Below, piece after piece: positions 1 through 43,368 of a DNA stretch of 64,000 nucleotides (its first letter is position 1; the number at the start of each line of letters is the position of its first letter). A program made the translations under genes and the position numbers. Where the stretch lies: assembly GCA_965645245.1 (NCBI GenBank), contig OZ287073.1:2108001-2172000 (forward strand), given 5' to 3'. The notes beneath the pieces are model-generated. The model saw only the letters and a program-made list of their open reading frames with translations. It ran no database searches and was not told the DNA's origin. Origin of the DNA: Massalongia carnosa. Lineage: Eukaryota.

Positions 1-592
1 GAGCAAAAAATGTATATAGATCAGGCGTATTTATCAAACTACATTTGTTTAATTTTAACCATTTGACTAGATTTTCTGATCGAATTGCATTTTGAATCTT
101 CGAATTCCACCAGCTATGATGTGCATTGAAATCTCCACATATGACAAATTGATCAGTTGATATAGGTTGATATTTAACTAAAAGTCGATCGATTGTATAT
201 GTTTCTCGATCGTTTAGACTTTTTTCATTGTAAAGGTTAAAGATCTGCACTTTTCGAACTTCATCAATTGTAATTTCGATAATTTGCAGATCAGTATCGT
301 TTATAAGATCCGTTCTAGGCGTGCATTGTAATTTTAGATTGCATTTTGTAACGAATATAGCTACTCTCGGCCGATAAGTCGCTATTTTCGGCATAATACA
401 TGTGAATGACGGATGGGAAATTGTTTTTTGATCTCGCGTCCATGGTTCCTGAAATAAAACAATATCAACACGATTTAATACTGCATATTCCAGACACGAA
501 ATCATTGCATTCGTTGACTTTGCACAATTATGTTGAATAAATTTGACATTTTGTGTATTTTCGATATTTGTCAACGAATGTTGTCCCGCCAT
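1..592 (-). CDS. LINE-A ORF2 N-terminus (APE endonuclease), partial
   Basis: ATG overlaps the ORF1 stop (TAATG). Motifs IQHN, FQEP, GDFNAHH. Confidence 0.9.
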   Translation of the reverse strand, partial: MAGQHSLTNIENTQNVKFIQHNCAKSTNAMISCLEYAVLNRVDIVLFQEPWTRDQKTISHPSFTCIMPKIATYRPRVAIFVTKCNLKLQCTPRTDLINDTDLQIIEITIDEVRKVQIFNLYNEKSLNDRETYTIDRLLVKYQPISTDQFVICGDFNAHHSWWNSKIQNAIRSENLVKWLKLNKCSLINTPDLYTFFA

Positions 593-2175
593 TAACCAAG
601 CATTAATTCATCATTCGATTTTCTAGGATTTAGCGAGATAAACATTTCGCAACCTATATCGTTCGATTGATGATTTTTGTTGCAATTGACGCATTTCAGA
701 ATTGCATGTGCGCATGCGATTTTAGACTTGCAGCTTGTGCATTCATGATTATGCGTTTCATGACTTTGTGCGCATATATTGCATTTTGCCGGACTTTTGC
801 ATTGATAATGCTTATGTCCAAATTTCTGACAATTAATACATTGCGTGTTTGGACGAACGGATGCAAATATTTCCGTGTCACAATGTCTACCCGCGATATT
901 CACGCCTCTTAACGCGTTTGACGCTTGATTTTGATTATTGAAAGTCAAAACTACCGACGACGTGACTTTGTTTTGACGATCCCGAGCAAGCCATCTTGGT
1001 AAATCGCATAGTTGCATATTCGAATTGTATTTTTCGATTTCGGTTTGCAAATATTGCATGTTATTATCGAATAACGAGATATTTACTCCGTGTGCTATGA
1101 CTTTAAACCAGGATTCGTCTTTTCGAATTCTTTGTGATTCGAAAATGTGTTCCCATGAAGATTTATTTTTCAACAATTCTTCGGCATTGTTGTCAGGGCT
1201 AGTGGTGAGAACGATATTCTGACCAGTTTTGGACTTTTCAACAGTATTGACGATGATGTTTAAATTTGCGTGTTTTAATAGCTCGTTAATTTGATCACGC
1301 AGCTTCATAGAGTCGATTTGAGCGTCAGGATTTTTCGGTGAAATTACGAGTCGTCTGGCCTTGATTGCATCATATCGATCGACTTTGTTCGAATTATGAT
1401 TCGAACTTTTCCTTTGAATAGTAGTCCAACTTTCGGAGTTTTCGGTTGCTTTTCCAAGCATTTGACTCCATGTACCGGTTGTGCTAACATTGTTACCAGA
1501 GACCCCGGTGGCTCCTTTGCGAATGGTCTGATTTTCGATAATTGAATTTTCGTTCAATTTAACAACAGGTTTTTGGATTTTTGGACCATTCTGTAGTGGA
1601 GTCGTTTGTTGTTGTGACGTTTTTGAGGAAAGATGACTAGTTTGATCAAGTACTATGCCCATTTTATAGTTAATTATATCTAAGGATGTTTGTAAATTGA
1701 TTGATTTTTTCGAAATCAACGAATTAACGTTGTCAATTACGATAGCCGTTTGTGGATTTTGGTCCAGTACAAATGATTGCAATAATGCTTTTTTGGCCGA
1801 CTTTAGAAGCTCAATTGAATTTGCCCGATTGATCGCTTCTTGGCTATCTCTCGAATGTTCGTCAAATGTGCGTCTTTTATTTCGTTTGATTGGTGGGCTT
1901 GATCCAATATTTAAGTTCAATGAAGGCATCGGCAAGATAGTGGAAAATGGACCCGATGGGAATTTCGTTGCCTTTGGTGTCGGTGTGGACGGGGCTGATG
2001 CATATTCGCGAGTTTGATCCATAGGTTCAAGACGGGGAGAGCTCCCTATCAACGCCACCGGAGATGGTCCGGGGGAGTGTCGGGGGGGGGCCGGGTAAGG
2101 GGTCGATAGGGGGGCGGGACCGGCTGGGGGTGGTGTCCTTGGTATATTCCGGCGGTTCATTACCGCGTTAAACAT
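592..2175 (-). CDS. LINE-A ORF1 gag-like nucleic-acid-binding protein, 527 aa, intact
   Basis: Pro-rich N-terminus. C-terminal knuckles CINCQKFGHKHYQC, CNICAQSHETHNHEC, CVNCNKNHQSNDIGC. Confidence 0.93.
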   Translation of the reverse strand: MFNAVMNRRNIPRTPPPAGPAPLSTPYPAPPRHSPGPSPVALIGSSPRLEPMDQTREYASAPSTPTPKATKFPSGPFSTILPMPSLNLNIGSSPPIKRNKRRTFDEHSRDSQEAINRANSIELLKSAKKALLQSFVLDQNPQTAIVIDNVNSLISKKSINLQTSLDIINYKMGIVLDQTSHLSSKTSQQQTTPLQNGPKIQKPVVKLNENSIIENQTIRKGATGVSGNNVSTTGTWSQMLGKATENSESWTTIQRKSSNHNSNKVDRYDAIKARRLVISPKNPDAQIDSMKLRDQINELLKHANLNIIVNTVEKSKTGQNIVLTTSPDNNAEELLKNKSSWEHIFESQRIRKDESWFKVIAHGVNISLFDNNMQYLQTEIEKYNSNMQLCDLPRWLARDRQNKVTSSVVLTFNNQNQASNALRGVNIAGRHCDTEIFASVRPNTQCINCQKFGHKHYQCKSPAKCNICAQSHETHNHECTSCKSKIACAHAILKCVNCNKNHQSNDIGCEMFISLNPRKSNDELMLG

Positions 2176-3094
2176 GGATTTATAAATAAATCGATGTTGC
2201 CTTTGCTATATCCCCTTTATCGCCACCAAATAATTTATTCTGACGTTCCCCGGACGTAATAGTCAGAATAGAGAGTTTTTACGCCGATTTACTGGTCTAA
2301 AGACTCTTGCTTTCCAAACCCTATTTATTTGACAATAACAAGTCAAATAAATCCTAGTCGAGTTAAAATAGACCGTTCCTCGCTTAGGCAATAGATCTTA
2401 TTTAACTCTTTACCTTGACACTACGATATATGGAATATAATAAGAATTTTACGATCGAACAGAAAAATTTTTTTTTTTTTAAAAAATGTTTTTGATCCAG
2501 AAATAAAAATCAAGTACAATGAGAGAGAGGAGACTTCCTATTCTGGTTAGCCTGAAACAGGGCCTTTGGTTTAACCCTATTTCAGACGTTTTTCCCCTTT
2601 GTTTCAGCAGATTGTTGGTCGGCAGTTCAACGAAAATCGAAAAAACCCAAAATGGAATAGTGTATACGGTACCGGTAACCTTAAATTTCAAATGAACACC
2701 AAGAAGTTTTGTTGTCTCGAGAACAGGTTGTACAGTTACGCGACAGTGATGATATTTTGTAGATAATTTTTGTGATAATAGATGAGATCTATGCGACAAT
2801 TAAACCGAAGAAATATCGAAAATCGAGCGATTTTTGACGTTGTTGTTGGTGTTTTTGTGTTTTGTAGATTTTTTGGACGCGCTTTTTGGTGAAGGGGCGG
2901 ACAGACCGCGAGGAAAACTCTGCAGGAGCAGTGGAAGAGCTCTCCTGTACCCAATTCTGATGGGTTTTAGCTTCTGGTAGGCTCAAATGAATGAGAAGAA
3001 TGAGGAGAATAAGTTGGGAAAGTTTCAGTATATCAAAACATAGGGTACCGATGTTTTGGGGGTTGGCTTTTTGCTGATAGTCGGAATGTTGGTG

Positions 3095-4586
3095 GGAACA
3101 ACAGATATGCTGAATGGAACGAAGACGAGAAAAAATCGAGTAAACCTCATCCTAGTCAGCTTATCCGTATTCTTCATTCCGTTTCGGATATAGTTCACAA
3201 AACTGATGAATTCGAATCAGTAAATAATTTCATCAAACCTTGGAAGCCGTCTTGTAAAATCAAGTTCCAAATCGAAAGATCAAAAGAAACAGCAAAGTCA
3301 AGTTATTATTCGACTTTATCAAAAATTCAATCAATAAACGCCGATAAATCGCAAATTTTACTTTATACCGATGGATCAAAAACCGAGTTTTCAACTTTCG
3401 CTGTCACATTTGCACCAATTACGCGAAATTGGAACAATTTCACCGATAAATTCAATCGTTTTATCGAAAAAGATTGTCTCCTCAAACATCATACGATTTC
3501 GAAAAGCTGGAAATTAAACAAACAGTCAAGCGTTAAAAACGCTGAACTGTATGCGATACTACAAGCAATAAAATGGGCATACAAATTGACAATTGCGAAT
3601 ATTCTCTTCAATTTGGAAAAAACGATTTGGATTTTTTCCGATAGCATAAACGCGATAAACGAAATTCAGAACTTGACAAATCATACTTACGCAAAACAAA
3701 TTCGAAAATTCTCGAAATGCTTATTCGGAAACAATTATCAGGTGGTTCTACAATGGATTCCTGGTCATTCGAAAATCGTCGAAAATGAAATTGCAGATAA
3801 AGCAGCAAAAGCGGGACATAGTCGAATCCTAGTCGAGTCTTCGATAATAACATTTGATTATGTGAAGGGTCAAATAAATCGAAATATGTTAGCCACATGG
3901 GCGAATCAATGGCAACAATGCAAGTCAAAAGGCAAATACTATGAGAAATTCGAAATGCAGCCGGGCAAATCGAGTTTTTATTATCTGTCGAATAATTGTT
4001 CTAAATTAATATTTGCAACTATTATGCAAATGAAATTCGGACACGGTTATTTTCGATCATATCTGCACCGATTGAAAGATTATAATTCGTCAAAATGCAC
4101 AGGGCGCTGCAACGAACGTCAAACGCCAGAACACTTATTGATGAATTGCATACATTATTCAAATGAAATCCTAAACATGAAACAAAATATCGATACCACA
4201 ATTACTTTAAAAATGTTGTTTAATACTAGGATCGGAAATAATATTTTGATTAAATTTATTGTTGATAACAAAATCGCGACTAGAAAATGGATGCTAGGTC
4301 AGCTCGATGACGAAAAAATCGTAACGGGAGGTTAGGGAGAGATCGAACAGTAAAATTAGAAATGATTTATGCTGGAATATTTACGAGCTTTACAGAAACA
4401 GATTTAAAAATCGATATTTCGATTACTAAAGGTTTTTACTAACACGGAGTAAAAACGGGGCAATATTGACGATACATAGTAGGGTTATAAAGGGTTGATT
4501 TATTTGTAAAATAAAACCATATCTTAAAATAGTTTAGTGTCATAACCTTAGGTTGAATACACTTAATGAATAAATAAAAAAAAAAA
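3095..4586 (+). mobile_element. LINE-A 5'-truncated direct arm of unit 1 (RNase H, C-terminal CCHC, 3' UTR, poly(A))
   Basis: Matches 15550-17046. YTDGS, NAEL, FSDS, PGHS, NEIAD motifs; premature TAG (TGG in other copies); A-tail at 4576-4586. Confidence 0.93.
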
Positions 4587-4609
4587 TTCAGCATAAATCA
4601 TTTCTAATT

Positions 4610-7600
4610 TTACTGTTCGATCTCTCCCCACCCTTCCGTTTCGATATTTTCGTCATCGAGCTGACCTAGCATCCATTTTCTAGTCGCGATTTTGTTATCA
4701 ACAATAAATTTAATAAAAATATTATTACCGAGCCTAGTATTAAACAACATTTTTAAAGTAATTGTGGTATCGATATTTTGTTTCATGTTTAGGATTTCAT
4801 TTGAATAATGTATGCAATTTATCAATAAGTATTCTGGCGTTTGACGTTCGGTTCAGCGCCCTGTGCATTTTAACGAATTATAATCTTTCAATCGGTGCAG
4901 ATATGATCGAAAATAACCGTGTCCGAATTTCATTTGCATAATAGTCGCAAATATCAATTTCGAACAATTATTCGACAGATAATAAAAACTCGATTTGCCC
5001 GGCTGCATTTTCGAATTTCTCATAGTATTTGCCTTTTGACTTGCATTGTTGCCATTGATTCGCCCATGTGGCTAACAAATTTCGATTTATTTGACCCTTT
5101 ACATAATCAAATGTTATTATCGAAGACTCGACTAGGAAGCGACTATGTCCCGCTTTTGCTGCTTTATCTGCAATTTCATTTTCGACGATTTTCGAATGAC
5201 TAGGAATCCATTGTAGAACCACCTGATAATTGTTTCCGAATAAGCATTTCGAGAATTTTCGAATTTGTTTTGCGTAAGTATGATTTGTCAAGTTCTGAAT
5301 TTCGTTTATCGCGTTTATGCTATCGGAAAAAATCCAAATCCTTTTTTCCAAATTGAAGAGAATATTCGCAATTGTCAATTTGTATGCCCATTTTATTGCT
5401 TGTAGTATCGCATACAGTTCAGCGTTTTTAACGCTTGACTGTTTGTTTAATTTCCAGCTTTTCGAAATCGTATGATGTTTGAGGAGACAATCTTTTTCGA
5501 TAAAACGATTGAAGTTATCGGTGAAATTGTTCCAATTTCGCATAATTGGTGCAAATGTGACAGCGGAAGTTGAAAACTCGGTTTTTGATCTATCGGTATA
5601 GAGTAACATTCGCGATTTATCTGATTGGATTTTTGATAAAGTCGAATAATAACTTGACTTTGCTGTTTCTTTGGATCTTTCGATTTGGAAATTGATTTTA
5701 CAAGACGGCTTCCATGGTTTGATGAAATTATTTACTGATTCGAATTCATCAGTTTTGTGAACTATATCCGAAACGGAATGAAGAATACGGATAAGCTGAC
5801 TAGGATGAGGTTTACTCGATTTTTTCTCGTCTTCGTTCCATTCAGCATATCTGTTGTTCCATAAACTAGTGTCAAAACCGATGTTTTCGAATTTCACAGA
5901 ATAGGTACTAGGAATTCTTTGACAAATAGGATTATTTTCGGCAATCTTCAATAATCGAATTGCGTATTTTGATTTTTCATCAACAATCGTAGCATGGCTG
6001 GTAAAATATGCGATTCAATTTCCATCGCCTGAACAGGCGTGGTTTTGAATGTGCCTAAAATCTTTCGAATCATTCGATTTTGCAGATTCTGAAATAGCTT
6101 TTCATATTTCTTTTGACCGTTATACCAGATTTCTGAGCCATAGTCCGAAATAGGAATAATGCATGACAGATAGAGCTGTCTGCATGCAGTTGGCTTTATT
6201 CCCCATTCAGACTTCATCAAATTTTGAATTGCGAAAAACGATCGATTTGCAGAAGCAATTCGCGTTTCGACGTGTTTTTTGTAATTTAGCTTTCGGTCTA
6301 ACCAGACTCCTAACCACTTGACAGAATTTCTCGGTTCTAGTATTGTCCCGTTTGGTAATTGCACTTTGTCTTTTGATGCATTTCTTGACTTTTCGAAGTG
6401 AATCAACTCAGATTTGTCGTCATCAAATTTGACATTATTCGTTGCGGCCCAATCAAAAGCTGTTTTGACGATAATTTCGATTTCTTTGCAATTCTGTGTG
6501 GCAGTTTTATTTTCGACATATATAGCAACATCGTCTATAAAGCTAGGTGAATGAGCATTGAACTTCATTCGTATTTTCGGAAATAAGTAACGAATATAAA
6601 TCAGAAATAGAATTGGCGAAATTGGTGAACCTTGTGGAATTCCAGATTCGATATAGTACGTTTTGCTTTTGTGTTCATCGAATATCAAATTGATCGATCG
6701 TTTTGTCATAAAATGCTTGACCCATTGAATAACTATGCGAGATAAATGCAGCTTTTTCATAATATTTAGCAATTGATTAATCGAAACAAAGTCAAATGCT
6801 CCTTTGACATCGAGTAATAGACATGATAAAACGTTTTTGATTCGGTTTGCGATTTCGATATCATGAACGACGTTCATTACCGCATCGATTGTAGAATGAT
6901 TTTTCCGTCCGCCCATTTGTTCGGTATCTAACAAGCTCGAATTTTCGCCGAGGTAGGCTAGTCGATTAGCAACTATTTTCTACGCAATTTTATCAAGATA
7001 ATTCAGTAAGGTAATAATTCGATATGATTTTGGCAACGAGAAGTCTGGTTTATTAGGTTTTTTTAAAACAGCACCGAGTCCTGTTCGCCAACATAACGGG
7101 TGATAACCGATTTGTATAAACTTAGAATAAATAGTAAAAAACACGTTTTTCAATGGTTGAAACGATTTTTGAATTATTGTGAAATTGATTGCATCAGGTC
7201 CACATGATTTCTTTGGATTAAATAAACTAATCGCAATTTGCAATTCATTTTCGGTTAAATTCGGCCAATTGTTGTCATTTTCGCTGTCTTGATTCGTTAA
7301 ATCTTCAATATTATCATCCGTGAACGGGTTTTTTGTGTACATTGCTGACACAAACGCATCGCATTTGTGATCGAATTGAACATATAACTTATTTTCATAT
7401 TGAATAGGAGGTATTTTTTCGAACATGCGCGGTTTAGTGTATTTATAAGCTGTAAATACGTCTTTATTCGCTGCGTTTTCGAGTAAAGCCAACCAAGTTT
7501 GCTGTTTCGCTTTTCGAATTGCATGAAAGTACTCGATTCGACTATGTCTAAATGTTTGATGACTAAAATAGGACGGATTATTCTTCCATTCTCGACGATG

Positions 7601-8614
7601 TCTACACATGATTTTTCGAAGTCCGGTTAAATCTTGCGACCACCAATTTTTCGATTTTGCGCATATTTTTGTCTTCGGAATAAACATTTCAGCCGCGTTT
7701 TTGATAACGTTTTGCAAATATAACGCTGATTCATCAAATTGATAATTGTTCAATAGACTTTGTATTTGGGACTCGTAGTTTACTGCATTTTCGTCTAGAA
7801 ACTTCGCGAATTTATCCCAATCGGCTTTATTGCAGTTGTATTTATTCGATAATGCGGTTGCGTGTGACGTCAAGTTCTTGAAAGACGCGATAAGTTCAAA
7901 TCGAATAACTTCATGATCTGAACCCGTGACTGCGTTTTCATCGATTGACCAATTTGTAATTGCGTTTTCGATTTTAGAATTTGCAAATGTTAAATCAATA
8001 ATAGATGAAGAGTTTCCTGAATGAGCATAAAATGTATATAGATCAGGCGTATTTATCAAACTACATTTGTTTAATTTTAACCATTTGACTAGATTTTCTG
8101 ATCGAATTGCATTTTGAATCTTCGAATTCCACCAGCTATGATGTGCATTGAAATGTCCACATATGACAAATTAATCAGTTGATATAGGTTGATATTTAAC
8201 TAAAAGTCGATCGATTGTATATGTTTCTCGATCGTTTAGACTTTTTTCATTGTAAAGGTTAAAGATCTGCACTTTTCGAACTTCATCAATTGTAATTTCG
8301 ATAATTTGCAGATCAGTATCGTTTATAAGATCCGTTCTAGGCGTGCATTGTAATTTTAGATTGCATTTTGTAACGAATATAGCTACTCTCGGCCGATAAG
8401 TCGCTATTTTCGGCATAATACATGTGAATGACGGATGGGAAATTGTTTTTTGATCTCGCGTCCATGGTTCCTGAAATAAAACAATATCAACACGATTTAA
8501 TACTGCATATTCCAGACACGAAATCATTGCATTCGTTGACTTTGCACAATTATGTTGAATAAATTTGACATTTTGTGTATTTTCGATATTTGTCAACGAA
8601 TGTTGTCCCGCCAT
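4610..8614 (-). pseudogene. LINE-A ORF2 (APE-RT-RNase H-CCHC), disrupted
   Basis: Fragments 8171-8614, 6980-8059, 5948-6934, 4968-5951, 4610-4825. RT motifs LLDVKGAFD, GIPQGSPISP, SFIDD. Confidence 0.93.
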
Positions 8615-10197
8615 TAACCAAGCATTAATTCATCATTCGATTTTCTAGGATTTAGCGAGATAAACATTTCGCAACCTATATCGTTCGATTGATGATTTTT
8701 GTTGCAATTGACGCATTTCAGAATTGCATGTGCGCATGCGATTTTAGACTTGCAGCTTGTGCATTCATGATTATGCGTTTCATGACTTTGTGCGCATATA
8801 TTGCATTTTGCCGGACTTTTGCATTGATAATGCTTATGTCCAAATTTCTGACAATTAATACATTGCGTGTTTGGACGAACGGATGCAAATATTTCCGTGT
8901 CACAATGTCTACCCGCGATATTCACGCCTCTTAACGCGTTTGACGCTTGATTTTGATTATTGAAAGTCAAAACTACCGACGACGTGACTTTGTTTTGACG
9001 ATCCCGAGCAAGCCATCTTGGTAAATCGCATAGTTGCATATTCGAATTGTATTTTTCGATTTCGGTTTGCAAATATTGCATGTTATTATCGAATAACGAG
9101 ATATTTACTCCGTGTGCTATGACTTTAAACCAGGATTCGTCTTTTCGAATTCTTTGTGATTCGAAAATGTGTTCCCATGAAGATTTATTTTTCAACAATT
9201 CTTCGGCATTGTTGTCAGGGCTAGTGGTGAGAACGATATTCTGACCAGTTTTGGACTTTTCAACAGTATTGACGATGATGTTTAAATTTGCGTGTTTTAA
9301 TAGCTCGTTAATTTGATCACGCAGCTTCATAGAGTCGATTTGAGCGTCAGGATTTTTCGGTGAAATTACGAGTCGTCTGGCCTTGATTGCATCATATCGA
9401 TCGACTTTGTTCGAATTATGATTCGAACTTTTCCTTTGAATAGTAGTCCAACTTTCGGAGTTTTCGGTTGCTTTTCCAAGCATTTGACTCCATGTACCGG
9501 TTGTGCTAACATTGTTACCAGAGACCCCGGTGGCTCCTTTGCGAATGGTCTGATTTTCGATAATTGAATTTTCGTTCAATTTAACAACAGGTTTTTGGAT
9601 TTTTGGACCATTCTGTAGTGGAGTCGTTTGTTGTTGTGACGTTTTTGAGGAAAGATGACTAGTTTGATCAAGTACTATGCCCATTTTATAGTTAATTATA
9701 TCTAAGGATGTTTGTAAATTGATTGATTTTTTCGAAATCAACGAATTAACGTTGTCAATTACGATAGCCGTTTGTGGATTTTGGTCCAGTACAAATGATT
9801 GCAATAATGCTTTTTTGGCCGACTTTAGAAGCTCAATTGAATTTGCCCGATTGATCGCTTCTTGGCTATCTCTCGAATGTTCGTCAAATGTGCGTCTTTT
9901 ATTTCGTTTGATTGGTGGGCTTGATCCAATATTTAAGTTCAATGAAGGCATCGGCAAGATAGTGGAAAATGGACCCGATGGGAATTTCGTTGCCTTTGGT
10001 GTCGGTGTGGACGGGGCTGATGCATATTCGCGAGTTTGATCCATAGGTTCAAGACGGGGAGAGCTCCCTATCAACGCCACCGGAGATGGTCCGGGGGAGT
10101 GTCGGGGGGGGGCCGGGTAAGGGGTCGATAGGGGGGCGGGACCGGCTGGGGGTGGTGTCCTTGGTATATTCCGGCGGTTCATTACCGCGTTAAACAT
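8614..10197 (-). CDS. LINE-A ORF1, 527 aa, intact
   Basis: Translation identical to 592-2175. Confidence 0.93.
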   Translation of the reverse strand: MFNAVMNRRNIPRTPPPAGPAPLSTPYPAPPRHSPGPSPVALIGSSPRLEPMDQTREYASAPSTPTPKATKFPSGPFSTILPMPSLNLNIGSSPPIKRNKRRTFDEHSRDSQEAINRANSIELLKSAKKALLQSFVLDQNPQTAIVIDNVNSLISKKSINLQTSLDIINYKMGIVLDQTSHLSSKTSQQQTTPLQNGPKIQKPVVKLNENSIIENQTIRKGATGVSGNNVSTTGTWSQMLGKATENSESWTTIQRKSSNHNSNKVDRYDAIKARRLVISPKNPDAQIDSMKLRDQINELLKHANLNIIVNTVEKSKTGQNIVLTTSPDNNAEELLKNKSSWEHIFESQRIRKDESWFKVIAHGVNISLFDNNMQYLQTEIEKYNSNMQLCDLPRWLARDRQNKVTSSVVLTFNNQNQASNALRGVNIAGRHCDTEIFASVRPNTQCINCQKFGHKHYQCKSPAKCNICAQSHETHNHECTSCKSKIACAHAILKCVNCNKNHQSNDIGCEMFISLNPRKSNDELMLG

Positions 10198-11207
10198 GGA
10201 TTTATAAATAAATCGATGTTGCCTTTGCTATATCCCCTTTATCGCCACCAAATAATTTATTCTGACGTTCCCCGGACGTAATAGTCAGAATAGAGAGTTT
10301 TTACGCCGATTTACTGGTCTAAAGACTCTTGCTTTCCAAACCCTATTTATTTGACAATAACAAGTCAAATAAATCCTAGTCGAGTTAAAATAGACCGTTC
10401 CTCGCTTAGGCAATAGATCTTATTTAACTCTTTACCTTGACACTACGATATATGGAATATAATAAGAATTTTACGATCGAACAGAAAAATTTTTTTTTTT
10501 TTAAAAAATGTTTTTGATCCAGAAATAAAAATCAAGTACAATGAGAGAGAGGAGACTTCCTATTCTGGTTAGCCTGAAACAGGGCCTTTGGTTTAACCCT
10601 ATTTCAGACGTTTTTCCCCTTTGTTTCAGCAGATTGTTGGTCGGCAGTTCAACGAAAATCGAAAAAACCCAAAATGGAATAGTGTATACGGTACCGGTAA
10701 CCTTAAATTTCAAATGAACACCAAGAAGTTTTGTTGTCTCGAGAACAGGTTGTACAGTTACGCGACAGTGATGATATTTTGTAGATAATTTTTGTGATAA
10801 TAGATGAGATCTATGCGACAATTAAACCGAAGAAATATCGAAAATCGAGCGATTTTTGACGTTGTTGTTGGTGTTTTTGTGTTTTGTAGATTTTTTGGAC
10901 GCGCTTTTTGGTGAAGGGGCGGACAGACCGCGAGGAAAACTCTGCAGGAGCAGTGGAAGAGCTCTCCTGTACCCAATTCTGATGGGTTTTAGCTTCTGGT
11001 AGGCTCAAATGAATGAGAAGAATGAGAAGAATAAGTTGGGAAAGTTTCAGTATATCAAAATATAGGGTACCGATGTTTTGGGGGTTGGCTTTTTGCTGAT
11101 GTAAAAACTCTCTATTCTGACTATTACGTCCGGGGAACGTCAGAATAAATTATTTGGTGGCGATAAAGGGGATATAGCAAAGGCAAAATCGATTTATTTA
11201 TAAATCC

Positions 11208-12795
11208 ATGTTTAACGCGGTAATGAACCGCCGGAATATACCAAGGACACCACCCCCAGCCGGTCCCGCCCCCCTATCGACCCCTTACCCGGCCCGCCGC
11301 CGACACTCCCCCGGACCATCTCCGGTGGCGTTGATAGGGAGCTCTCCCCGTCTTGAACCTATGGATCAAACTCGCGAATATGCATCAGCCCCGTCCACAC
11401 CGACACCAAAGGCAACGAAATTCCCATCGGGTCCATTTTCCACTATCTTGCCGATGCCTTCATTGAACTTAAACATTGGATCAAGCCCACCAATCAAACG
11501 AAATAAAAGACGCACATTTGACGAACATTCGAGAGATAGCCAAGAAGCGATCAATCGGGCAAATTCAATTGAGCTTCTAAAGTCGGCCAAAAAAGCATTA
11601 TTGCAATCATTTGTACTGGACCAAAATCCACAAACGGCTATCGTAATTGACAACGTTAATTCGTTGATATCGAAAAAATCAATCAATTTACAAACATCCT
11701 TAGATATGATTAACTATAAAATGGGCATAGTACTTGATCAAACTAGTCATCTTTCCTCAAAAACGTCACAACAACAAACGACTCCACTACAGAATGGTCC
11801 AAAAATCCAAAAACCTGTTGTTAAATTGAACGAAAATTCAATTATCGAAAATCAGACCATTAGCAAAGGAGCCACCGGGGTCTCTGGTAACAATGTTAGC
11901 ACAACCGGTACATGGAGTCAAATGCTTGGAAAAGCAACCGAAAACTCCGAAAATTGGACTACTACTCAAAGGAAAAGTTCGAATCATAATTCGAACAAAG
12001 TCGATCGATTTGATGCAATCAAGGCCAGACGACTCGTGATTTCACCGAAAAATCCTGACGCTCACTCAAATCGACTCTATGAAGCTGCGTGATGAAATTA
12101 ACGCGCTATTAAAAAACGCAAATTTAAACATCATCGTCAATACTGTTGAAAAGTCCAAAACCGGTCAGAATATCGTTCTCACCACTAGCCCTGACAACAA
12201 TGCCGAAGAATTGTTGAAAAATAAATCTTCATGGGAACACATTTTCGAATCACAAAGAATTCGAAAAGACGAATCCTGGTTTAAAGTCATAGCACACGGA
12301 GTAAATATCTCGTTATTCGATAACAACATGCAATATTTGCAAACCGAAATCGAAAAATACAATTCGAATATGCAACTATGCGATTTACCAAGATGGCTTG
12401 CTCGGGATCGTCAAAACAAAGTCACGTCGTCGGTAGTTTTGACTTTCAATAATCAAAATCAAGCGTCAAACGCGTTAAGAGGCGTGAATATCGCGGGTAG
12501 ACATTGTGACACGGAAATATTTGCATCCGTTCGTCCAAACACGCAATGTATTAATTGTCAGAAATTTGGACATAAGCATTATCAATGCAAAAGTCCGGCA
12601 AAATGCAATATATGCGCACAAAGTCATGAAACGCATAATCATGAATGCACAACATGCAAGTCTAAAATCGCAAGCGCACATGCAATTCTGAAATGCGTCA
12701 ATTGCAACAAAAATCATCAATCGAACGATATAGGTTGCGAAATGTTTATCTCGCTAAATCCTAGAAAATCGAATGATGAATTAATGCTTGGTTAA
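11208..12795 (+). pseudogene. LINE-A ORF1 with a frameshift
   Basis: A CTCA duplication at 12061-12068 splits it into 294-aa and 238-aa pieces. Confidence 0.9.
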
Positions 12796-15700
12796 TGGCG
12801 GGACAACATTCGTTGACAAATATCGAAAATACACAAAATGTCAAATTTATTCAACATAATTGGGCAAAGTCAACGAATGCAATGATTTCGTGTCTGGAAT
12901 ATGCAGTATTAAATCGTGTTGATATTGTTTTATTTCAGGAACCATGGACGCGAGATCAAAAAACAATTTCCCATCCGTCATTCACATGTATTATGCCGAA
13001 AATAGCGACTTATCGGCCGAGAGTAGCTATATTCGTTACAAAATGCAATCCAAAATTACAATGCACGCCTAGAACGGATCTTATAAACGATACTGATCTG
13101 CAAATTATCGAAATTACAATTGATGAAGTTCGAAAAGTGCAGATCTTTAACCTTTACAATGAAAAAAGTCTAAACGATCGAGAAACATATACAATCGATC
13201 GACTTTTAGTTAAATATCAACCTATATCAACTGATCAATTTGTCATATGTGGAGATTTCAATGCACATCATAGCTGGTGGAATTCGAAGATTCAAAATGC
13301 AATTCGATCAGAAAATCTAGTCAAATGGTTAAAATTAAACAAATGTAGTTTGATAAATACGCCTGATCTATATACATTTTTTGCTCATTCAGGAAACTCT
13401 TCATCTATTATTGATTTAACATTTGCAAATTCTAAAATCGAAAACGCAATTACAAATTGGTCAATCGATGAAAACGCAGTCACGGGTTCAGATCATGAAG
13501 TTATTCGATTTGAACTTATCGCGTCTTTCAAGAACTTGACGTCACACGCAACCGCATTATCGAATAAATACAACTGCAATAAAGCCGATTGGGATAAATT
13601 CGCGAAGTGTCTAGACGAAAATGCAGTAAACTACGAGTCCCAAATACAAAGTCCATTGAACAATTATCAATTTGATGAATCAGCGTTATATTTGCAAAAC
13701 GTTATCAAAAACGCGGCTGAAATGTTTATTCCGAAGACAAAAATATGCGCAAAATCGAAAAATTGGTGGTCGCAAGATTTATCCGGACTTCGAAAAATCA
13801 TGTGTAGACATCGTCGAGAATGGAAGAATAATCCGTCCTATTTTAGTCATCAAACATTTAGACATAGTCGAATCGAGTACTTTCATGCAATTCGAAAAGC
13901 GAAACAGCAAACTTGGTTGGCTTTCCTCGAAAACGCAGCGAATAAAGACGTATTTACAGCTTATAAATACACTAAACCGCGCATGTTCGAAAAAATACAA
14001 CCTATTCAATATGAAAATAAGTTAAATGTTCAATTCGATCACAAATGCGATACGTTTGTGTCAGCAATGTACACAAAAAACCCGTTCACGGATGATAATA
14101 TTGAAGATTTAACGAATCAAGACAGCGAAAATGACAACAATTGGCCGAATTTAACCGAAAATGAATTGCAAAATGCGATTAGTTTATTTAATCCAAAGAA
14201 ATCATGTGGACCTGATGCAATCAATTTCACAATAATTCAAAAATCGTTTCAACCATTGAAAAACGTGTTTTTTACTATTTATTCTAAGTTTATACAAATC
14301 GGTTTTCACCCGTTATGTTGGCGAACAGGACTCGGTGCTGTTTTAAAAAAACCTAATAAACCAGACTACTCACTGCCAAAATCATATCGAATTATTACCT
14401 TACTGAATTGTATTGGTAAAATTGCGGAGAAAATAGTTGCTAATCGACTAGCCTACCTCGGCGAAAATTCGAGCTTGTTAGATACCGAACAAATGGGCGG
14501 ACGGAAAAATCATTCTGCAATCGATACGGTAATGAACGTCGTTCATGATATCGAAATCGCAAACCGAAACAAAAACGTTTTATCATGTCTATTACTCGAT
14601 GTCAAAGGAGCATTTGACTTTGTTTCGATTAATCAATTGCTAAATGTCATGAAAAAGCTGCATTTATCTCGCATAGTTATTCAATGGGTCAAGCATTTTA
14701 TGACAAAACGATCGATCAATTTGATATTCGATGAACACAAAAGCAAAACGTACTATATCGAATCTGGAATTCCACAAGGTTCACCAATTTCGCCAATTCT
14801 ATTTCTGATTTATATTCGTTACTTATTTCCGAAAATACGAATGAAATTCAATGCTCATTCACCTAGCTTTATAGACGATGTTGCAATATATGTCGAAAAT
14901 AAAACTGCCACACAGAATTGCAAAGAAATCGAAATTATCGTCAAAACAGCTTTTGATTGGGCCGCAACGAATAATGTCAAATTTGATGACGACAAATCTG
15001 AGTCGATTCACTTCGAAAAGTCAAGAAATGCATCAAAAGACAAAGTGCAATTACCAAACGGGACAATACTAGAACCGAAAAATTCTGTCAAATGGTTAGG
15101 AGTCTGGTTAGAAAGAAAACTAAATTACAAAAAACACGTCGAAACGCGAATTGCTTCTGCAAATCGATCGTTTTTCGCAATTCAAAATTTGATGAAGTCT
15201 GAATGGGGACTAAAGCCAACTGCATGCAGACAGCTCTATTTGTCATGCATTATTCCTATTTCGGACTATTGCTCAGAAATCTGGTATAACGGTCAAAAGA
15301 AATATGAAAAGCTATTTCAGAATCTGCAAAATTGAATGATTCGAAAGATTTTAGGCACATTCAAAACGACGCCTGTTCAGGCGATGGAAATTGAATCGCA
15401 TATTTTACCAGCCAAGCTACGATTGTTGATGAAAAATCAAAAATACGCAATTCGATTATTGAAGATTGCCGAAAATAATCCTATTTGTCAAAGAATTCCC
15501 AGTACCTATTCTGTGAAATTCGAAAACATCGGTTTTGACACTAGTTTATGGAACAACAGATATGCTGAATGGAACGAAGACGAGAAAAAGTCGAGTAAAC
15601 CTCATCCTAGTCAGCTTATCCGTATTCTTCATTCCGTTTCGGATATAGTTCACAAAACTGATGAATTCGAATCAGTAAATAATTTCATCAAACCATGGAA

Positions 15701-16808
15701 GCCGTCTTGTAAAATCAAGTTCCAAATCGAAAGATCCAAAGAAACAGCAAAGTCAAGTTATTATTCGACTTTATCAAAAATCCAATCAATAAACGCCGAT
15801 AAATCGCGAATGTTACTCTATACCGATGGATCAAAAACCGAGTTTTCAACTTCCGCTGTCACATTTGCACCAATTATGCGAAATTGGAACAATTTCAACG
15901 ATAACTTCAATCGTTTTATCGAAAAAGATTGTCTCCTCAAACATCATACGATTTCGAAAAGCTGGAAATTAAACAAACAGTCAAGCGTTAAAAACGCTGA
16001 ACTCTATGCGATACTACAAGCAATAAAATGGGCATACAAATTGACAATTGCGAATATTCTCTTCAATTTGGAAAAAACGATTTGGATTTTCTCCGATAGC
16101 ATAAACGCGATAAACGAAATTCAGAACTTGACAAATCATACTTACGCAAAACAAATTCGAAAATTCTCGAAATGCTTATTCGGAAACAATTATCAGGTGG
16201 TTCTACAATGGATTCCTAGTCATTCGAAAATCGTCGAAAATGAAATTGCAGATAAAGCAGCAAAAGCGGGACATAGTCGAATCCTAGTCGAGTCTTCGAT
16301 AATAACATTTGATTATGTAAAGGGTCAAATAAATCGAAATATGTTAGCCACATGGGAGAATCAATGGCAACAATGCAAGTCAAAAGGCAAATACTATGAG
16401 AAATTCGAAATGCAGCCGGGCAAATCGAGTTTTTATTATCTGTCGAATAATTGTTCGAAATTAATATTTGCGACTATTATGCAAATGAAATTCGGACACG
16501 GTTATTTTCGATCATATCTGCACCGATTGAAAGATTATAATTCGTCAAAATGCACAGGGCGCTGCAACGAACGTCAAACGCCAGAACACTTATTGATGAA
16601 TTGCATACATTATTCAAATGAAATCCTAAACATGAAACAAAATATCGATACCACAATTACTTTAAAAATGTTGTTTAATACTAGGATCGGAAATAATATT
16701 TTGATTAAATTTATTGTTGATAACAAAATCGCGACTAGAAAATGGATGCTAGGTCAGCTCGATGACGAAAATATCGAAACGGGAGGTTGGGGAGAGATTG
16801 AACAGTAA
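12795..16808 (+). pseudogene. LINE-A ORF2 (APE-RT-RNase H-CCHC) with one in-frame stop
   Basis: 846 aa + 490 aa in the same frame, separated by TGA at 15333 (CGA in the minus copy). Confidence 0.93.
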
Positions 16809-17046
16809 AATTAGAAATGATTTATGCTGGAATATTTACGAGCTTTACAAAAACAAATTGTAAAATCGATATTTCGATTACTAAAGGTTGTTACTAACAC
16901 GGAGTAAAAACGGGGCAATATTGACGATAGATAGTTGGGTTATAAAGGGTTGATTTATTTGTAAAATAAAACCATATCTTAAAATAGTTTAGTGTCATAA
17001 CCTTAGGTTGAATACACTTAATGAATAAATAAAAAAATAAAAAAAA

Positions 17047-20000
17047 TTTCAACCATTTGACAAGATTTTCTGATCGAATTGCTTGTTGAATTTTCGTATT
17101 CCACCAGTTATGATATGCATTGAAATATCTACAGATGACGAATTGATCAGTTGATTTAGGTTGTAATTGGATTAAAAGTCGATCGATCGTTTATGTTTCT
17201 CGATCACTTTGACTTTTTTCGTTATAAATTTTGAAAATCGGCACTTTTCGAACTTCATCAATTGTAATTTTAATAATTTGCATATCGGAATCGTCAATAA
17301 AATCCGTTCTAGGCGTGCATTGCAGTTTGGGATTGCCTTTTGTGAAAAATATAGCTACTCTCGAGCGATAAGTCGCTATTTTTGGCATAATACATGTAAA
17401 TGACGGATGTGATATTGTTTTTTGATCTCGTGTCCATGGTTCCTGAAACAAAACAATATCAATTTGATTTGATAAAATATATTCCAAACACGATATCATT
17501 GCATTCCTTGACTTTGCACAATTATCTTGAATAAATTTAACATTTTGTGTATTTTCGATGTTTGTCAACGAATGCTGTCCTGCCATTACAAAGCGGCTAA
17601 TTCGTCAGTCGATTTTCTAACATTTAACGATGTAACCATTTCACAATTTTCATCATTGGATTGATTATTCTTGTTGCAATTCGCGCATTTGACGACGACG
17701 TGTGCACAAGGAATTTTCGATTTGCATGTTGTGCATTTATGATTGCGTGTTTCATGGTTTTGCGCACATATGCTGCATTTGGCTTGACTTTTGCATTGAT
17801 AATGCTTGTGTCCAAATTTTGACAATTAATGCATTGTGTGTTTGGACGAACGGAGGTAAATATTTCCGTGTCACAATGTCGGCCCGCGATATTGACTCCT
17901 TTCAACGCGTTCAAGGCCATATTTCGATCATTGAATGTCAAAACAACAGATGATTTTATCTTGTTATGACGATCACGTGCTAGCCATTTGGGAACATCGC
18001 ATACTTGCATGTTCGAATTGAACTTTGGAATTTCGTCTTGCGAATATGGCATGTTTTCATCAAATGTTGCAATATTTACACCGTGTGCGACGACTTTAGA
18101 CCACGATTCGTCCTTTCGAACTGTTCGTGGGTCGAATAAATGCTCTCATATTGCTTTATTGTTCAATAAATCTTCAGCAGTGTTATCAGGACTAGTAGTC
18201 AGAACGATGTTTTGACCCGTTTTGGACTTTTCGACCGTGTTAACAACGAGAGTCAATTTCGCGTCATTAAAAAGCGAATTGATTTGGTTTCGAAGTAACA
18301 GTGAATAGATATCGCCGATTTGAGCTTTCGGTGTGATTATCAACCATCGAGATTAGATCGCCTTGAAATCGTCAGTATTATCGAATTTGTTCGCATTCGA
18401 ATTATTGTTGTTGTTCTTGTTTGTTTTTTTTGGATCGAGGAACGGTAGTCCAAATTTCGGAATTGACAGTCGCTTTTCCGAGCATTTGGCTCCATGTTCT
18501 AGCAGTATCGTTGACCTGTGGCTCTGGGACTCCAGCAGTTTCGCTCCGAATTTCTGGGTTGACGTTTTTAGTCAAATTCTAATTTCCATTTGAATTTCCC
18601 TTCGATTTTGTCTCTTTGTTTCTGGAATTTGGCTAGTTCGTTCTAGCACCCATTCAATTTCCAATCAATCATTTCTAACGTTGCTTTTGGCTTGATCGAT
18701 TTCTTTGCCAGTAGAGAATTAACGTGATCGATGACTACAGCCGTTTCGGGGGTTTGATCTATTACGAATAACTCCAATAATGTATTTTTTGCCGTATTAA
18801 ATAGTTGAATCGATTTTGATCGATTGATGACTTCTTGACTTTCAATCGAATGTTCGTCAAATGTTCGTCTTTTGTTGCGTTTAATTGGTGGACTCAGTCG
18901 AATATCAGAATTCAATGATGGCATGGGCAGATTGGTACTGAATTTCACCAGATGGCGCGACAAAAGATTTCGCTTTTGGGGTGGGTGTGGACGGTGCGGA
19001 CGAAAATTCTCGCGTTTGGTCCATGGCCTCCGTGGATTCTACGGTTAGGGGGTTGCTCCCAATTATCGCTACCGAAGATGGCGTGGGTGAGTCGGTTCGG
19101 GGGGGGCCCGGGGGTGTACTCGGGGGGACCCATAGATGTTGTGGAGGGGGGCCTGGGGGAGGAGTTGTTGGTTTCAATCGATTTGGTCTATGACCTATCG
19201 GGTTAAATCTTCGATTGAGCATAGTGTTTTTGCCTTTGCAATATCCCTTTTATCGCCACCAAATAATTTATTCTGACTTTCCCCGGACGTACTAGTCAGA
19301 ATAGAATTTACACCTGTTTACTGGTCAAATGACTCTTTCTTTCCTATCCCTATTTATTTGACTATAACGCGTCAAATAAATCTTAATCGGGTTAAAATAG
19401 ACCGTTCCTTGCTAACGCAGTAAGTCTTATTTAACCCTTTACCAGACACTACAATAGGTGAAAATAATGAAAGTTTTTTTTTGCTTTTTCCATTAAAGAT
19501 AGATTTTAATGTAATGTAAGACAATAGGAGACTTCCTATTCTGATTAATCTGAAACAGTACCTTTGGTATAATCCTATTCCAGACGTTTTTCCCCTTCTT
19601 TTCAGTGATCTGTTGACCGGCCGTTCAATGAAGATCTATAAAGCCGGAAATGGAATGTGCAAAAATTATACGTGAAATATGCTATGAAAATTTGTGCTTG
19701 TGGAAGTTCCCGTAACCTTAAATGAGGAATGAACTTTAGAAGACTTTGACGTCGCGACAGTTTTTGTACAGTCCCGCGAGAGTAGATATTTTTTGTAGAT
19801 AATTTTTATAGTAATAATTGAAGGTCAGGCAACAACAGAACAGAAGAAAACAAGAAAAAAGAGCGATTTTTGTTGAGGTTGTTGGTATTTGTTGTTTTTT
19901 CCAACTTCTAGAGCGCGCTTTATCACGTCGGTCGCGTGCGACCAGCAGAAAAACACTGCTGGAGCTTTGCTAGAGCTCTCCTACACTAAATCTGAGAGCC

Positions 20001-20104
20001 TTTTTGCTCTGGAAGATCTTAAATGACTGAGAAATAGAGGCTCAATTGACTGTTAAAGTTATAGTATATCAAATGTTGCGGTACTTGTGTTTCTTGTTAT
20101 TGAT
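17047..20104 (-). mobile_element. Diverged LINE-A' inverted arm of unit 3 (5' leader, decayed ORF1, partial endonuclease)
   Basis: ORF fragments 17191-19222 are homologous to LINE-A. TAATG overlap retained. Leader blocks homologous to 2176-3078. Ends at TGAT. Confidence 0.9.
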
Positions 20105-22963
20105 TGGTTTATTTAATCCGAAGAAAGTATATGGACCTGATGCAATCAATTTCGCAATTGTGCAAAACTCGTTTCAATCGTTGAAAAACGTGTTTTTCAT
20201 GATTTATTCGAAATTCATTCGAATTGTTTATCACCCGTTATGCTGGCGGACAGGACTCGGTGCAGTTCTGAAAAAACCTAATAAATCAGACTATTATTCA
20301 TTTCCAAAATCATATCGAATTATCACATTACTAAATTGTCTTGGTAAAATTGCTGAGAAAATCGTTGCAAATCGACTAGCCTACTTCAGCGAAAATTCGA
20401 ATTTACTCGATATCGAACAGATGGGCGGACGCAAAAATCATTCTGCAAATTGACTCAGTAATGAACGTTGTTCATGATAATGAATTGCAAATAGAAATAA
20501 AAACGTCTTATCATGTTTATTACTCGATGTCAAAGGCGCATTTGACTTTGTCTGGATTAATCAACTGCTAAATGTTATGAAAAAGCTGAAATTATCTCGC
20601 ATAATAATTCAATGGGTCAAGCATTTCATGACAAAACGATCGATCAATTTGATATTTGATGAAATTAAAAGCAAAACATATTATGTCGAATCAGGAATTC
20701 CACAAGGCTCACCAATCTCGCCTATTCTATTTCTGATTTACATTCGTCACTTGTTTCCGAAAATACGAATGAAATTCAATGCACATTCTCCCAGTTTTAT
20801 TGTCGATGTTGCAATAAATGTCGAAAATGAAACTGCAAAACAGAGTTGCAAAGAAATCGAAATCATAGTCAAAACGGCCTATGATTGGGCCGCATCGAAT
20901 AATGTCAAATTTGATGACGATAAATCCGAGCTGATTCACTTCGAAAAGACAAGAAAAGTATCGAAAGACACATTGGAATTACCAAACGGGACAGTACTAG
21001 AACCGAAAAATATAGTCAAATGGTTGGGCGTCTGGTTAGACCGAAATTTAAATTTCAAAAAACACGTCGAAACGCGGATCTCTTCTGCGAATCGATCGTT
21101 TTTTGCAATTCAGAATTTGATGAAATCCGAATGGGGTCTGAAACCGACCGCATGCAGACAGCTCTATTTGTCATGCATTATTCCTATTTTGGACTACGGC
21201 TCAGAAATTTGGTATAATGGTCAAAAGAAATATGAAAAATTGTTTCAGAACATACAAAATCAAATGATTCGAAAGATTTTTGGAACTTTCAAAACCACAC
21301 CTATTCAGGCGATAGAAATTGAATCACATGTTTTACCAGTTAAACTTCGATTATTAAAGAAAAATCAAAAATACGCAATTCGATTATTGAAGATTGCCGA
21401 AAATAACCCTATTTGTCAACGAATTCCAAACACATATTCGATAAAATTCGAAAAAATCGGTTTTGACACTAGTTTATGGAACAACAAATATGCCGAATGG
21501 AACGAAGACGAAAAACAAACAAATAAAGGACATCCTAGTCAGCTTATTCGCGTTCTTCATTCCGTTTCCGATATAGTTCACAAAACTGATGAATTTGAAC
21601 AATCAAATCATTTTATTAAACCTTGGAAATCGCCGTGCAAAATCGTATTTCAAATCGAAAATACAAAGGAATCTGCTAAATCAAGTTATTATTCGACCTT
21701 ATCTAAAATCAAATCAATGAACTCCGATAAATCCCGAGTTTTACTTTATACAGATAGATCGAAAATCGAATTTGTATCGTCTGCAGTCACATTTGCGCCA
21801 ATTATGAGGAATTGGAGTAATATTATCAATAATTTTGATCGATTTATCGAAAAAGATTGTCTGATCAAGTATCATACGATTTCGAAAAGCTGGAAATTAA
21901 GCAAACAGTCAACCATTAAAAATGCTGAACTGCATGCGATTTTACAAGCAATGAAATGGGTCTATAAATTGTCGAATACTAATATTTTATCGAACTTAGA
22001 AAAAACGATTTGGATTTTTTCTGATAGTATAAACGCGATAAACGAAATTCATAACTTGACAAATCATATTTTCGCAAGACAAATTCGAAAGCACGCAAAA
22101 CGCTTATTTGAAAGCAATTATCATGTGATTTTGCTATGGGTTCCGAGTCATTCAAATATTACCGGAAACGAAATTGCAGACAAAATAGCAAAGACGGGCC
22201 ATAATCAAATCCTAGTCGAGTCCTCGGCGATAACATTTGATTATGTAAAAGATCAAATAAATCAAAATACGCTTACCACATAGACGAATCAATGGCAACA
22301 ATGCAAATCAAAAGGCAAATACTACGAGAAATTCGAAATGAAACCTGGCATATCGAGATTTTATTATTTATCACACAACTGTTCCAAATTGATATTTGCT
22401 ACTATTATGCAATTAAAATTCGGACACGGCTATTTTCGATTATATTTATAGCGATTGAAAGATTATAATTCATCAAAATGCACAAATCGATGCAATCAAC
22501 GAAAAACGCCAGAACACTTGTTATTAAATTGCATTCACTATTTCGATGAAATTCAAAACATGAAACAAAATATCGATACTATGATCAACTTAAATATGTT
22601 GTTTAATACAAAAATCGGAAATGATATTTTGATTAAATTTATTGTCAATAAAAAAATCGCGACTAGAAAATGGATACTAGGTCAGCTTGATGACGAGATT
22701 TTCGAAACTGGAGGTTGGGGAGAGATCGAACAGTAAAATCAGAAACGATTTATGCTGAAACATTCACGAACTTACAAAAACAAATTGTAAAATCGATATT
22801 CTTCGATTACTATAGGTTGTTACTAATACGGAGTAAAAATGGGGAAAAATTGACGATACATAGATAGGTTATAAAGGGTTGATTTATTTGTAATATAGAA
22901 ACAAATCCTAAAATAGTTTAGTGTCATAACCTTAGGTTGAATACACTTAAAAATTAAAAAAAA
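20101..22963 (+). mobile_element. Diverged LINE-A' direct arm of unit 3 (RT, RNase H, CCHC, 3' UTR, A tail), disrupted
   Basis: ORF fragments 20046-20453, 20577-22283, 22455-22736. Starts at LFNPKK just before the RT. Confidence 0.9.
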
Positions 22964-28346: not shown

Positions 28347-28517
28347 TGTAACGGTTCGACCAAGCGTGGTGCGGACGGCAGGACCTACTGCGAACATAGC
28401 AGGAGTCCCAGTTATAGTAGAATAGAGCTTGGTCTACGGACTAAGTATTGTGCCTTTTGGTCGGGAAGGACAGGTGGCGCAATGGTAGAAATCTATTCAC
28501 TATCTCGCTTCGTCACA
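28347..28517. mobile_element. 171-bp solo LTR inserted in the start of LINE-B ORF2
   Basis: TGTAACG...CGTCACA termini, GAGGG 5-bp TSD, second copy at 31771. Confidence 0.9.
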
Positions 28518-28534
28518 GAGGGGTTTTGTGTCCC

Positions 28535-31196: not shown

Positions 31197-31440
31197 CTAT
31201 TATACAATTAACAGTAGTTTCACTTCTCTTATCCTTCTTATCTCATAAGGCGTTACAGTTCTCACATGATTTTCGCTCTGCGTCTCCTGTCCGACGTCGA
31301 CCCGGTGTCACATCGGACAGGTATCAAGGGATATGGTTTTTACACATGAAAAAGGGTTTCCATGTAACATAACTTAGATAGCTTTGCCCGCATGGGCCGA
31401 CCTACGGCCGGTGACATATCGGAGTATAAATACATCATCA

Positions 31441-34756: not shown

Positions 34757-34796
34757 TATTGATCAGTCTTAAAACGAAGAACGGTCCGCCTACGAT

Positions 34797-43350: not shown

Positions 43351-43368
43351 CTTTGAACACCCTTAAAG

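Follow-up and report, generated by a model that had tools for sequence, protein, structure and literature searches.

Three times in succession, an inverted copy of one long interspersed nuclear element (LINE) in the genome of Massalongia carnosa is joined, 5′ end to 5′ end, to a direct copy of the same element, which raises the question of whether each pair arose in a single insertion event or from separate insertions that came to lie side by side. The window that we analysed, which is the whole stretch containing this array, comprises 64,000 nucleotides (nt) of the forward strand of contig OZ287073.1 (GCA_965645245.1, positions 2,108,001 to 2,172,000). The architecture of the array is real and non-random. 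As the best explanation of each unit we lean towards a single, two-ended event resembling twin priming, because the 5′ ends are joined directly, the inverted arms end exactly where an RNA template would run out, and the two arms of a unit agree in subfamily.

The LINE was mapped by a BLAST search of the 64-kb window with both arms of unit 2, which flank position 11100/11101 and were kept unjoined; element coordinates refer to a full-length LINE taken as ~6743 nt. A self-comparison of the first 30 kb of the window reveals long inverted repeats, for example 5967-9344 versus 12065-15442 at 99%. In the following, U1m/U1p, U2m/U2p and U3m/U3p denote the minus and plus arms of units 1, 2 and 3, and F4p denotes an older plus copy.

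Anatomy of the LINE array

All three units share one architecture: a minus arm runs to element base 1 and is followed, within 0-16 nt, by a 5′-truncated plus arm with an A tail. In unit 1, U1m (1-3078, minus strand) covers element ~3078 to 1, carries an open ORF1 (open reading frame 1) and ends exactly at the element 5′ end (…TGAT), while its other end is cut by the left edge of the window. Sixteen nucleotides of filler without strand assignment (3079-3094) separate the two 5′ ends, and U1p (3095-4586, plus strand) comprises element 5246-6737 and an A run of ~11. Directly after this A run begins U2m (4587-11100, minus strand, BLAST start 4581/4587), which covers element ~6520 to 1 and lacks only the ~220-nt 3′ untranslated region (UTR) and the tail; its ORF1 is open, and its ORF2 has three stops and one 1-nt deletion. 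Joined bluntly to base 1 of U2m is U2p (11101-17047, plus strand), which comprises element 797-6743 and a tail of the form A7-T-A8; its ORF2, encoding an apurinic/apyrimidinic endonuclease (APE), a reverse transcriptase (RT) and an RNase H, is open except for one stop, and a 4-nt insertion splits its ORF1. Unit 3 is of a diverged subfamily. U3m (17048-20101, minus strand, BLAST start 17045/17048; element ~3032 to 1) lies right after the A run of U2p and is joined through four shared bases, GATT, to U3p (20102-22963, plus strand), which comprises element 3873-6730 and an A-rich tail.

The original prediction, made from the letters of the sequence, had placed head-to-head junctions at 3078/3095, 11100/11101 and ~20101-20104, and the BLAST map agrees with these positions to within a few bases made ambiguous by microhomology. 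The TGAT at which all three minus arms had been said to stop lies at homologous positions of the element. The map likewise bears out that the two fully visible minus arms, U2m and U3m, lack a 3′ end of their own and start directly after the preceding A tail (4587 and 17047), and that the pattern recurs in a young and a diverged subfamily: unit 3 is 73% identical to units 1 and 2 in the minus arm and 83-85% in the plus arm.

Element base 1 is retained by only three copies in the window, and all three adjoin the 5′ end of a copy on the opposite strand. By our own arithmetic, with ~5 other copy ends in 64 kb, the chance of one such abutment is ~1e-3. Because three of three base-1 copies abut opposite 5′ ends within 0-16 nt, the array is not a product of chance. 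Furthermore, of the family's five A tails in the window, four have another LINE piece at a distance of 0-3 nt. The plus and minus arms measure 5947 and 6514 nt in unit 2 and 2862 and 3054 nt in unit 3, and the repeat periods are unequal: the minus arms recur at 8022, the plus arms at 12455.

The ORF2 of U2p contains, in order, the Pfam domains Exo_endo_phos (PF03372/PF14529), RVT_1 (PF00078) and RNase_H (PF00075), an APE-RT-C-terminal RNase H order that is as expected for a LINE of the Tad1 clade. The best named relatives among 79 related proteins are fungal (Pleurotus, Sclerotinia and Ceratobasidium, 23-26% identity), and a protein atlas search returned generic APE-RT clusters only, with no usable taxonomy. 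Membership in the Tad1 clade is plausible on the basis of domain order and fungal relatives; the element resembles Tad1/I-type LINEs (APE-RT-RNase H) in these two respects and in its A-rich tail, and differs in that its ORF1 (527 aa) has no Pfam match. The LINE stretch was detected in six sequencing runs, runs with four different organism labels contain the family, and the family is multi-copy, since two protein clusters at 90% identity comprise 126 and 204 sequences. Of the five arms in the array that bear ORF2, none retains it unbroken, U1m covering only the first ~200 codons.

Junctions, arms and related LINEs

The three 5′-5′ joins are of three kinds, namely a 16-nt filler in unit 1, a blunt join in unit 2 and the 4-nt microhomology in unit 3. 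No remnant of a target-site duplication (TSD) lies between the facing 5′ ends in any of the three joins, whose spacings are 16, 0 and -4 nt, so there is no room for the ~14-bp TSDs of separate insertions. A nearby ordinary insertion does carry a 14-bp TSD. Specifically, F4p (22966-23413, plus strand; element ~6221-6639), an older 5′-truncated copy that has no inverted partner, directly follows the tail of U3p and is interrupted in its 3′ UTR by an unrelated non-LTR (non-long terminal repeat) element with RT and CCHC gag (23414-30046, minus strand), which is flanked by a TSD of ~14 bp; the rest of F4, comprising element 6627-6737 and an A tail, resumes at 30047-30157 (plus strand).

The filler of unit 1 has no match to the sequence right of the U1p tail. 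Aligned with the old-subfamily sequence adjoining the breakpoint of U2m, it agrees at 12 of 14 positions if two 1-nt gaps are allowed, and 20 of 5000 shuffles were as good at that one target; its match to the young variant is poor (1265-1445 of 5000 shuffles as good). Window-wide the match to the old subfamily is not significant, equal or better chance matches occurring elsewhere. We also considered a later minus copy that reuses the target site of the plus copy. Such reuse predicts TSD remnants of ~14 nt, where we found 0, -4 and 16 nt, and it is contradicted by a filler unlike the right flank of U1p; it was rejected.

At the starts of the minus arms, 4587 and 17047, 2-5 A/T bases are common to the A run and the arm, an observation of low power in AT-rich sequence. 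Two A's are shared at 17047. At the site that corresponds to 4587, intact copies in the same orientation are A/T-rich, and their RNA reads UAUUU just 3′ of the breakpoint. The two starts fit either priming by the end of an A run on U-containing RNA or an endonuclease nick in an older minus copy. A structured 3′ UTR as the cause of the U2m start just past the ORF2 stop was rejected (fold z-score 0.11). The TSDs of the units themselves are unreadable because the target is an A run or an A tail; the A7-T-A8 tail of U2p could include a copy of the T-A(n) end of U1p, but T-interrupted tails are common in the family.

Both arms belong to the same subfamily in each of the three units. U2m and U2p both hold element 797-6520 and thus overlap by 5.7 kb, and they share the same letter at all 13 displayed sites that are polymorphic in the family. 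U1m and U2m differ at 5 of 3078 sites (99.84% identity), an identity that stops exactly at base 1. In a three-way comparison over element 797-3078, U2p is the arm that deviates at 21 sites, U2m at three and U1m at none; over element 5246-6520, the deviating letter belongs to U2m 20 times, to U1p 16 times and to U2p 7 times. The differences between the arms rule out the simplest history, one master with equally ageing arms; they would fit either several source lineages or a U1m that is a late copy of the U2m lineage. If U1m is such a late copy, the rows displayed would suggest similar loads in the 5′ halves of U2m and U2p, ~14 versus ~10 changes in 2282 nt.

Repeat-induced point mutation was rejected as the source of arm divergence, with transitions accounting for 37 of the 88 differences between U2m and U2p and for a similar share in other pairs. 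Among the displayed substitutions private to U2p (11101-16837), 18 of 24 alter a C or a T of the sense strand, C to A being the most frequent change (7). Damage to, or errors in, a single strand would fit this strand-asymmetric spectrum as well as age would.

An exact search of metagenome contigs with 23 bases of the element 5′ terminus gave no match. A profile search of metagenome contigs with relatives of ORF2 yielded 76 loci, seven of which have LINE-protein matches on both strands. One of them, L002, carries an ORF2 49% identical to that of the window LINE and a very similar 3′ end; it has the 5′ terminus of that LINE as well, two of its 5′ ends reading ATCAAT in the sense direction. In L002 an inverted arm (18445-19306) passes without intervening bases into an A-tailed direct arm (19307-19983), and the arms are non-overlapping with a gap of 638 nt in element range, the classic layout of twin priming. 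All four A tails examined in L002 abut another LINE piece: an A17 run precedes a minus arm missing only the 3′ UTR, like U2m, and one A tail is followed by a 5′-truncated plus copy. L004 shows a tail followed by a minus arm, with a left flank under 160 nt. Two further loci are uninformative, L041 with ~1 kb of unassigned DNA between opposite-strand matches and L001 with a tail-to-tail palindrome at a contig end.

Some further details of L002 were recorded. At 4587 in the window and at L002:14208, the minus arm starts within about 20 nt (<=~20 nt) past the ORF2 stop, right after an A run, and each of these arms lacks just the ~220-nt 3′ UTR, in two families whose ORF2 proteins are 49% identical. 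A 75-nt tail fragment stands in tandem at an A tail (L002:14053-14202, 98.7% identity), and at L002:4240-4469 two 5′-complete LINE ends face each other 228 nt apart.

Origin of the units

From the anatomy of the array, the junction types and the sequence relations of the arms, we infer a single event per unit, with the priming steps and the template jump that follow. The T-rich end of the bottom strand would prime on the poly(A) tail of the LINE RNA and give rise to the plus arm. The A-rich end of the top strand would anneal within a LINE RNA, to a short stretch that contains U, and give rise to the minus arm; the minus arm would lack a 3′ end because an A-rich top-strand end cannot pair with poly(A) and so primes internally. 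The complementary DNA (cDNA) of the minus arm would then run off the 5′ end of the RNA, and the two cDNA ends would be joined directly, by a template jump or by end joining, freezing the plus arm in mid-synthesis. The region as a whole fits a series of LINE insertions that repeatedly used one A-rich target or earlier A tails, with the youngest on the left.

The original prediction had likened the units to twin-priming 5′ inversions of mammalian L1. The polarity stands: the 5′-most base of the inverted arm is joined to the 5′-most base of the direct arm, and the A tail is on the direct arm. The single-RNA form of the process does not carry over to unit 2, whose arms share 5.7 kb and differ at 88 sites. 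Classic twin priming on a single RNA fits unit 3, possibly fits unit 1 and does not fit unit 2, which cannot stem from one RNA in the classic manner because its arms overlap by 5.7 kb. Unit 2 may instead have used two RNAs, in the manner of the proposed "dual priming", or one RNA copied twice with strand displacement. Moreover, the near-identity of U1m and U2m as against the divergence of the plus arms means that two templates or later local copying must be invoked.

A broader version of this proposal, which we put forward tentatively and regard as rather doubtful, is that the use of both ends of a staggered break is habitual in this LINE family with its RNase H, and that two templates are often involved. 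The top-strand end, A-rich and as a rule that of an earlier A tail, would prime inside a LINE RNA, which may be the nascent transcript of a neighbouring 5′-complete copy, so that U1m would come to resemble U2m; the minus-arm cDNA would always run off the 5′ end, and the poly(A)-primed polymerase would then jump onto that cDNA. Were this so, full-length inverted arms, kilobase-scale inverted duplications and chains that extend themselves at A tails would follow, and the family would be a natural realisation of the "dual priming" so far only postulated.

Several observations weigh against a single two-ended event for each unit. The arms of unit 2 are not identical: 88 of 5729 aligned sites, together with 5 indels, distinguish U2m from U2p, and at 24 of 37 displayed sites U2p carries a letter that is rare in the family (absent from 90-100% of family depth) where U2m carries the family letter. 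In contrast to the near-identical U1m and U2m, U1p and U2p differ at 31 of 1496 sites (97.9% alike) and U1p and U2m at 36 of 1285 (97.2%); because U1m and U2m are 99.84% alike and the plus arms ~2% apart, the arms within a unit do not have one simple shared history. The arm ratio of unit 1 is 0.48 or less. No unambiguous TSD surrounds any unit, A runs alone being present, and the left ends of the units, at which a signal would separate priming from nesting, are A-run joins or lie beyond the window edge. A clear inverted-plus-direct pair was found at only one of the seven both-strand loci among the 76 metagenome loci. Finally, sequencing data from four runs (X1, X2, X3 and X6) were compared with window 10300-17200 as Logan contigs, the pieces shown being mostly 130-670 nt. 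None among the 32 pieces displayed of 20,456 bridges or contradicts 11100/11101, the contigs being short, and none among the 15 joints displayed of 153 starts at 11100.

The sole "opposite strands" joint among those displayed, 10305 to 11101, reflects the continuity of an intact element. Several joints in run X1 contain extra letters that include GATC, and the run resembles a proximity-ligation library. Because of this GATC-bearing filler the X1 joints are unreliable, and those inside the element are probably artefactual.

The main rival, a nest of ordinary, separate insertions with target-site deletions at the 5′ joins of the minus copies, is an unlikely origin, albeit one with appreciable weight. 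Later plus copies would have landed inside earlier minus copies, whose displaced 3′ parts would now sit outside the window on its left; the targeting of the family's own A tails suggested in the original prediction competes with such nesting. An imbalance in private changes speaks for such a history (over element 797-3078, 21 odd sites in U2p versus 3 in U2m; ~0 in U1m versus 16 in 1285 nt of U1p), as do the A/T-rich sites of both joins between an A tail and a minus arm, which are possible endonuclease targets. Nesting indeed occurs in the window, where both halves of F4 flank the other non-LTR element with its TSD, and in L004 and L002, too, an A tail leads into the interior of a minus copy. 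Against this history, it needs three 5′ joins that each come to lie within 0-16 nt of an inverted 5′ end of the same subfamily, and at least two nestings into a copy that had just arrived, and no TSD remnants are left between the 5′ ends; in the excerpted part of PMC12016303, target-site deletions are given for only ~7-8% of human L1 insertions. The variable 5′ truncation of the plus arms and the invariable extension of the minus arms to base 1 would also follow if a full-length first-strand cDNA snapped back into a hairpin and primed the plus arm, the minus arm of the resulting palindrome being cut later by nesting. We consider this snap-back very improbable: it requires a minus arm that spans everything in the plus arm, yet neither U3p (element 3873-6730) nor the final 223 nt of U2p has a counterpart in the respective minus arm, nesting must be added for both visible units, and arms identical at birth would not be expected to show 88 differences.

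There is equally little to be said for an assembly artefact in which reads from different LINE copies were mis-joined in a repeat-rich stretch, although the displayed short contigs do not bridge 11100/11101, U1m and U2m are near-identical over 3 kb and the window starts inside an arm. Mis-joins fall in shared sequence, not three times at base 1 in two subfamilies; the joins here show the microhomology and filler of real retrotransposition joins; and an independent contig of a related LINE, L002, contains the same kinds of join. A palindrome from a missed adapter was rejected, since it would give identical, symmetric arms, whereas those here are 1.5% apart and offset by 796 nt. Rearrangement at the DNA level, be it a fold-back inverted duplication, ectopic recombination or gene conversion among neighbours, has in our estimation the least probability. 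Gene conversion or local duplication could account for the near-identity of U1m and U2m at a distance of 8 kb, but that identity ends exactly at base 1, breakpoints of recombination fall inside homology rather than at base 1, and the repeat periods differ between minus (8022) and plus (12455) arms. A fold-back of U2m was rejected, as it would enter the reverse complement of the left flank, whereas U2p runs into its native 3′ UTR and A tail.

Beyond the array, the whole window appears to be made up of mobile elements. The element inserted into F4 contains RVT_1 at 25914-27239, CCHC gag at 28897-29940 and a tail resembling a TCA repeat, and a second, 5′-truncated copy of its family (30158-31441, plus strand) directly follows the A tail of F4, so that 111 nt of F4 lie between the facing 5′ ends of the two copies. 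An LTR retrotransposon at 34458-41395 has LTRs (34458-34756 and 41097-41395) of 97% identity, and another at 42978-49146 has LTRs (42978-43277 and 48847-49146) of 99% identity and ORFs for gag, protease, RT, RNase H and integrase. Away from the array, a lone 47-nt fragment of the LINE 3′ end with an A-rich tail lies at 49406-49452 on the minus strand. Copia-type gag/RT ORFs occupy 51435-54926 (minus strand), and an ORF at 57714-59348 (plus strand) has a strong match to DUF7924 (E = 1e-69).

Comparison with known systems

If the units are single events, two-ended priming would be a general property of APE-type LINEs, including those that bear RNase H, and the present array would be an extreme form of it, with inverted arms always reaching the first base of the RNA and arm overlaps on the kilobase scale. 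It would then bear on how the LINE 5′ end is attached (template jump versus end joining), on whether one or two RNAs serve an event, and on how inverted repeats made only of LINEs, and chains running from tail to copy, grow in repeat-rich genomes. If the units are nested ordinary insertions, the finding is an ordinary one. Judged by the titles listed, the literature on 5′ inversion and twin priming deals almost only with mammalian retrotransposition and human genomes, with few other retroelement systems, and within the literature searched we found no description of 5′ inversions in fungal or Tad1-type LINEs.

Insertion of L1 and Alu into A-rich tails, or at reused target sites, gives head-to-tail runs. 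The array is similar in that A tails are abutted by LINE pieces, both in the window (4 of 5) and in L002 (the four examined), and it differs in that two of the abutting pieces here are inverted, 3′-truncated arms. A template jump of the R2 type needs a free template end, and extra bases can appear in the process. Such a jump would explain a join at the run-off end at base 1 and the 16-nt filler, but the acceptor here would be the 3′ end of a cDNA. End-to-end template jumping of non-LTR reverse transcriptases (R2) is named in PMC2912911.

Dual priming with two mRNAs was postulated but not demonstrated by Meyer et al. 2010 (PMC2837659). Two RNAs, one for each nick, allow overlapping arms that differ in sequence, as in unit 2. 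In contrast to the array, dual priming predicts an inverted arm that starts with a T run and the 3′ UTR, whereas U2m and U3m start internally; it fits only if the 3′ parts of U2m and U3m were split off by later nested insertions.

In twin priming (Ostertag and Kazazian 2001), as outlined in the excerpt of PMC2912911, both DNA ends prime on the same L1 RNA. That excerpt gives ~30% of human- and chimpanzee-specific L1 inserts as 5′-inverted, ~70% of these with 2-5 bp of microhomology at the 5′ junction, the site of which in human L1 is the junction between target and inverted arm. Human twin-primed cDNAs overlap by a median of 12 bp in the excerpted PMC12016303. Among inverted L1 inserts in tumours, bioRxiv 10.1101/2024.08.27.596794 lists internal deletions in 66% (1120/1703, median 14.5 bp) and internal duplications in 17% (283/1703, median 22 bp), with arm lengths that correlate (R = 0.76) and a poly(A)-primed arm 2.6 times longer.

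Consistent with this system, the 5′-most base of an inverted 5′ segment is attached, in each unit of the array, to a direct segment with an A tail; microhomology is present where target and inverted arm meet and sometimes at the inversion join, arm lengths are correlated, and an internal gap is possible, with which the ~840-nt gap of unit 3 is compatible. Unlike mammalian L1, the inverted arm here reaches element base 1 in all three units and equals or exceeds the direct arm in length, whereas the poly(A)-primed part of human inserts is 2.6 times the longer one; the overlap in unit 2 is 5.7 kb as against human medians of 12-22 bp, the arms are non-identical, the target is an A run or an A tail, and the element is a non-L1 LINE with an RNase H domain. 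The array probably represents a modified form of twin priming in a LINE other than L1.

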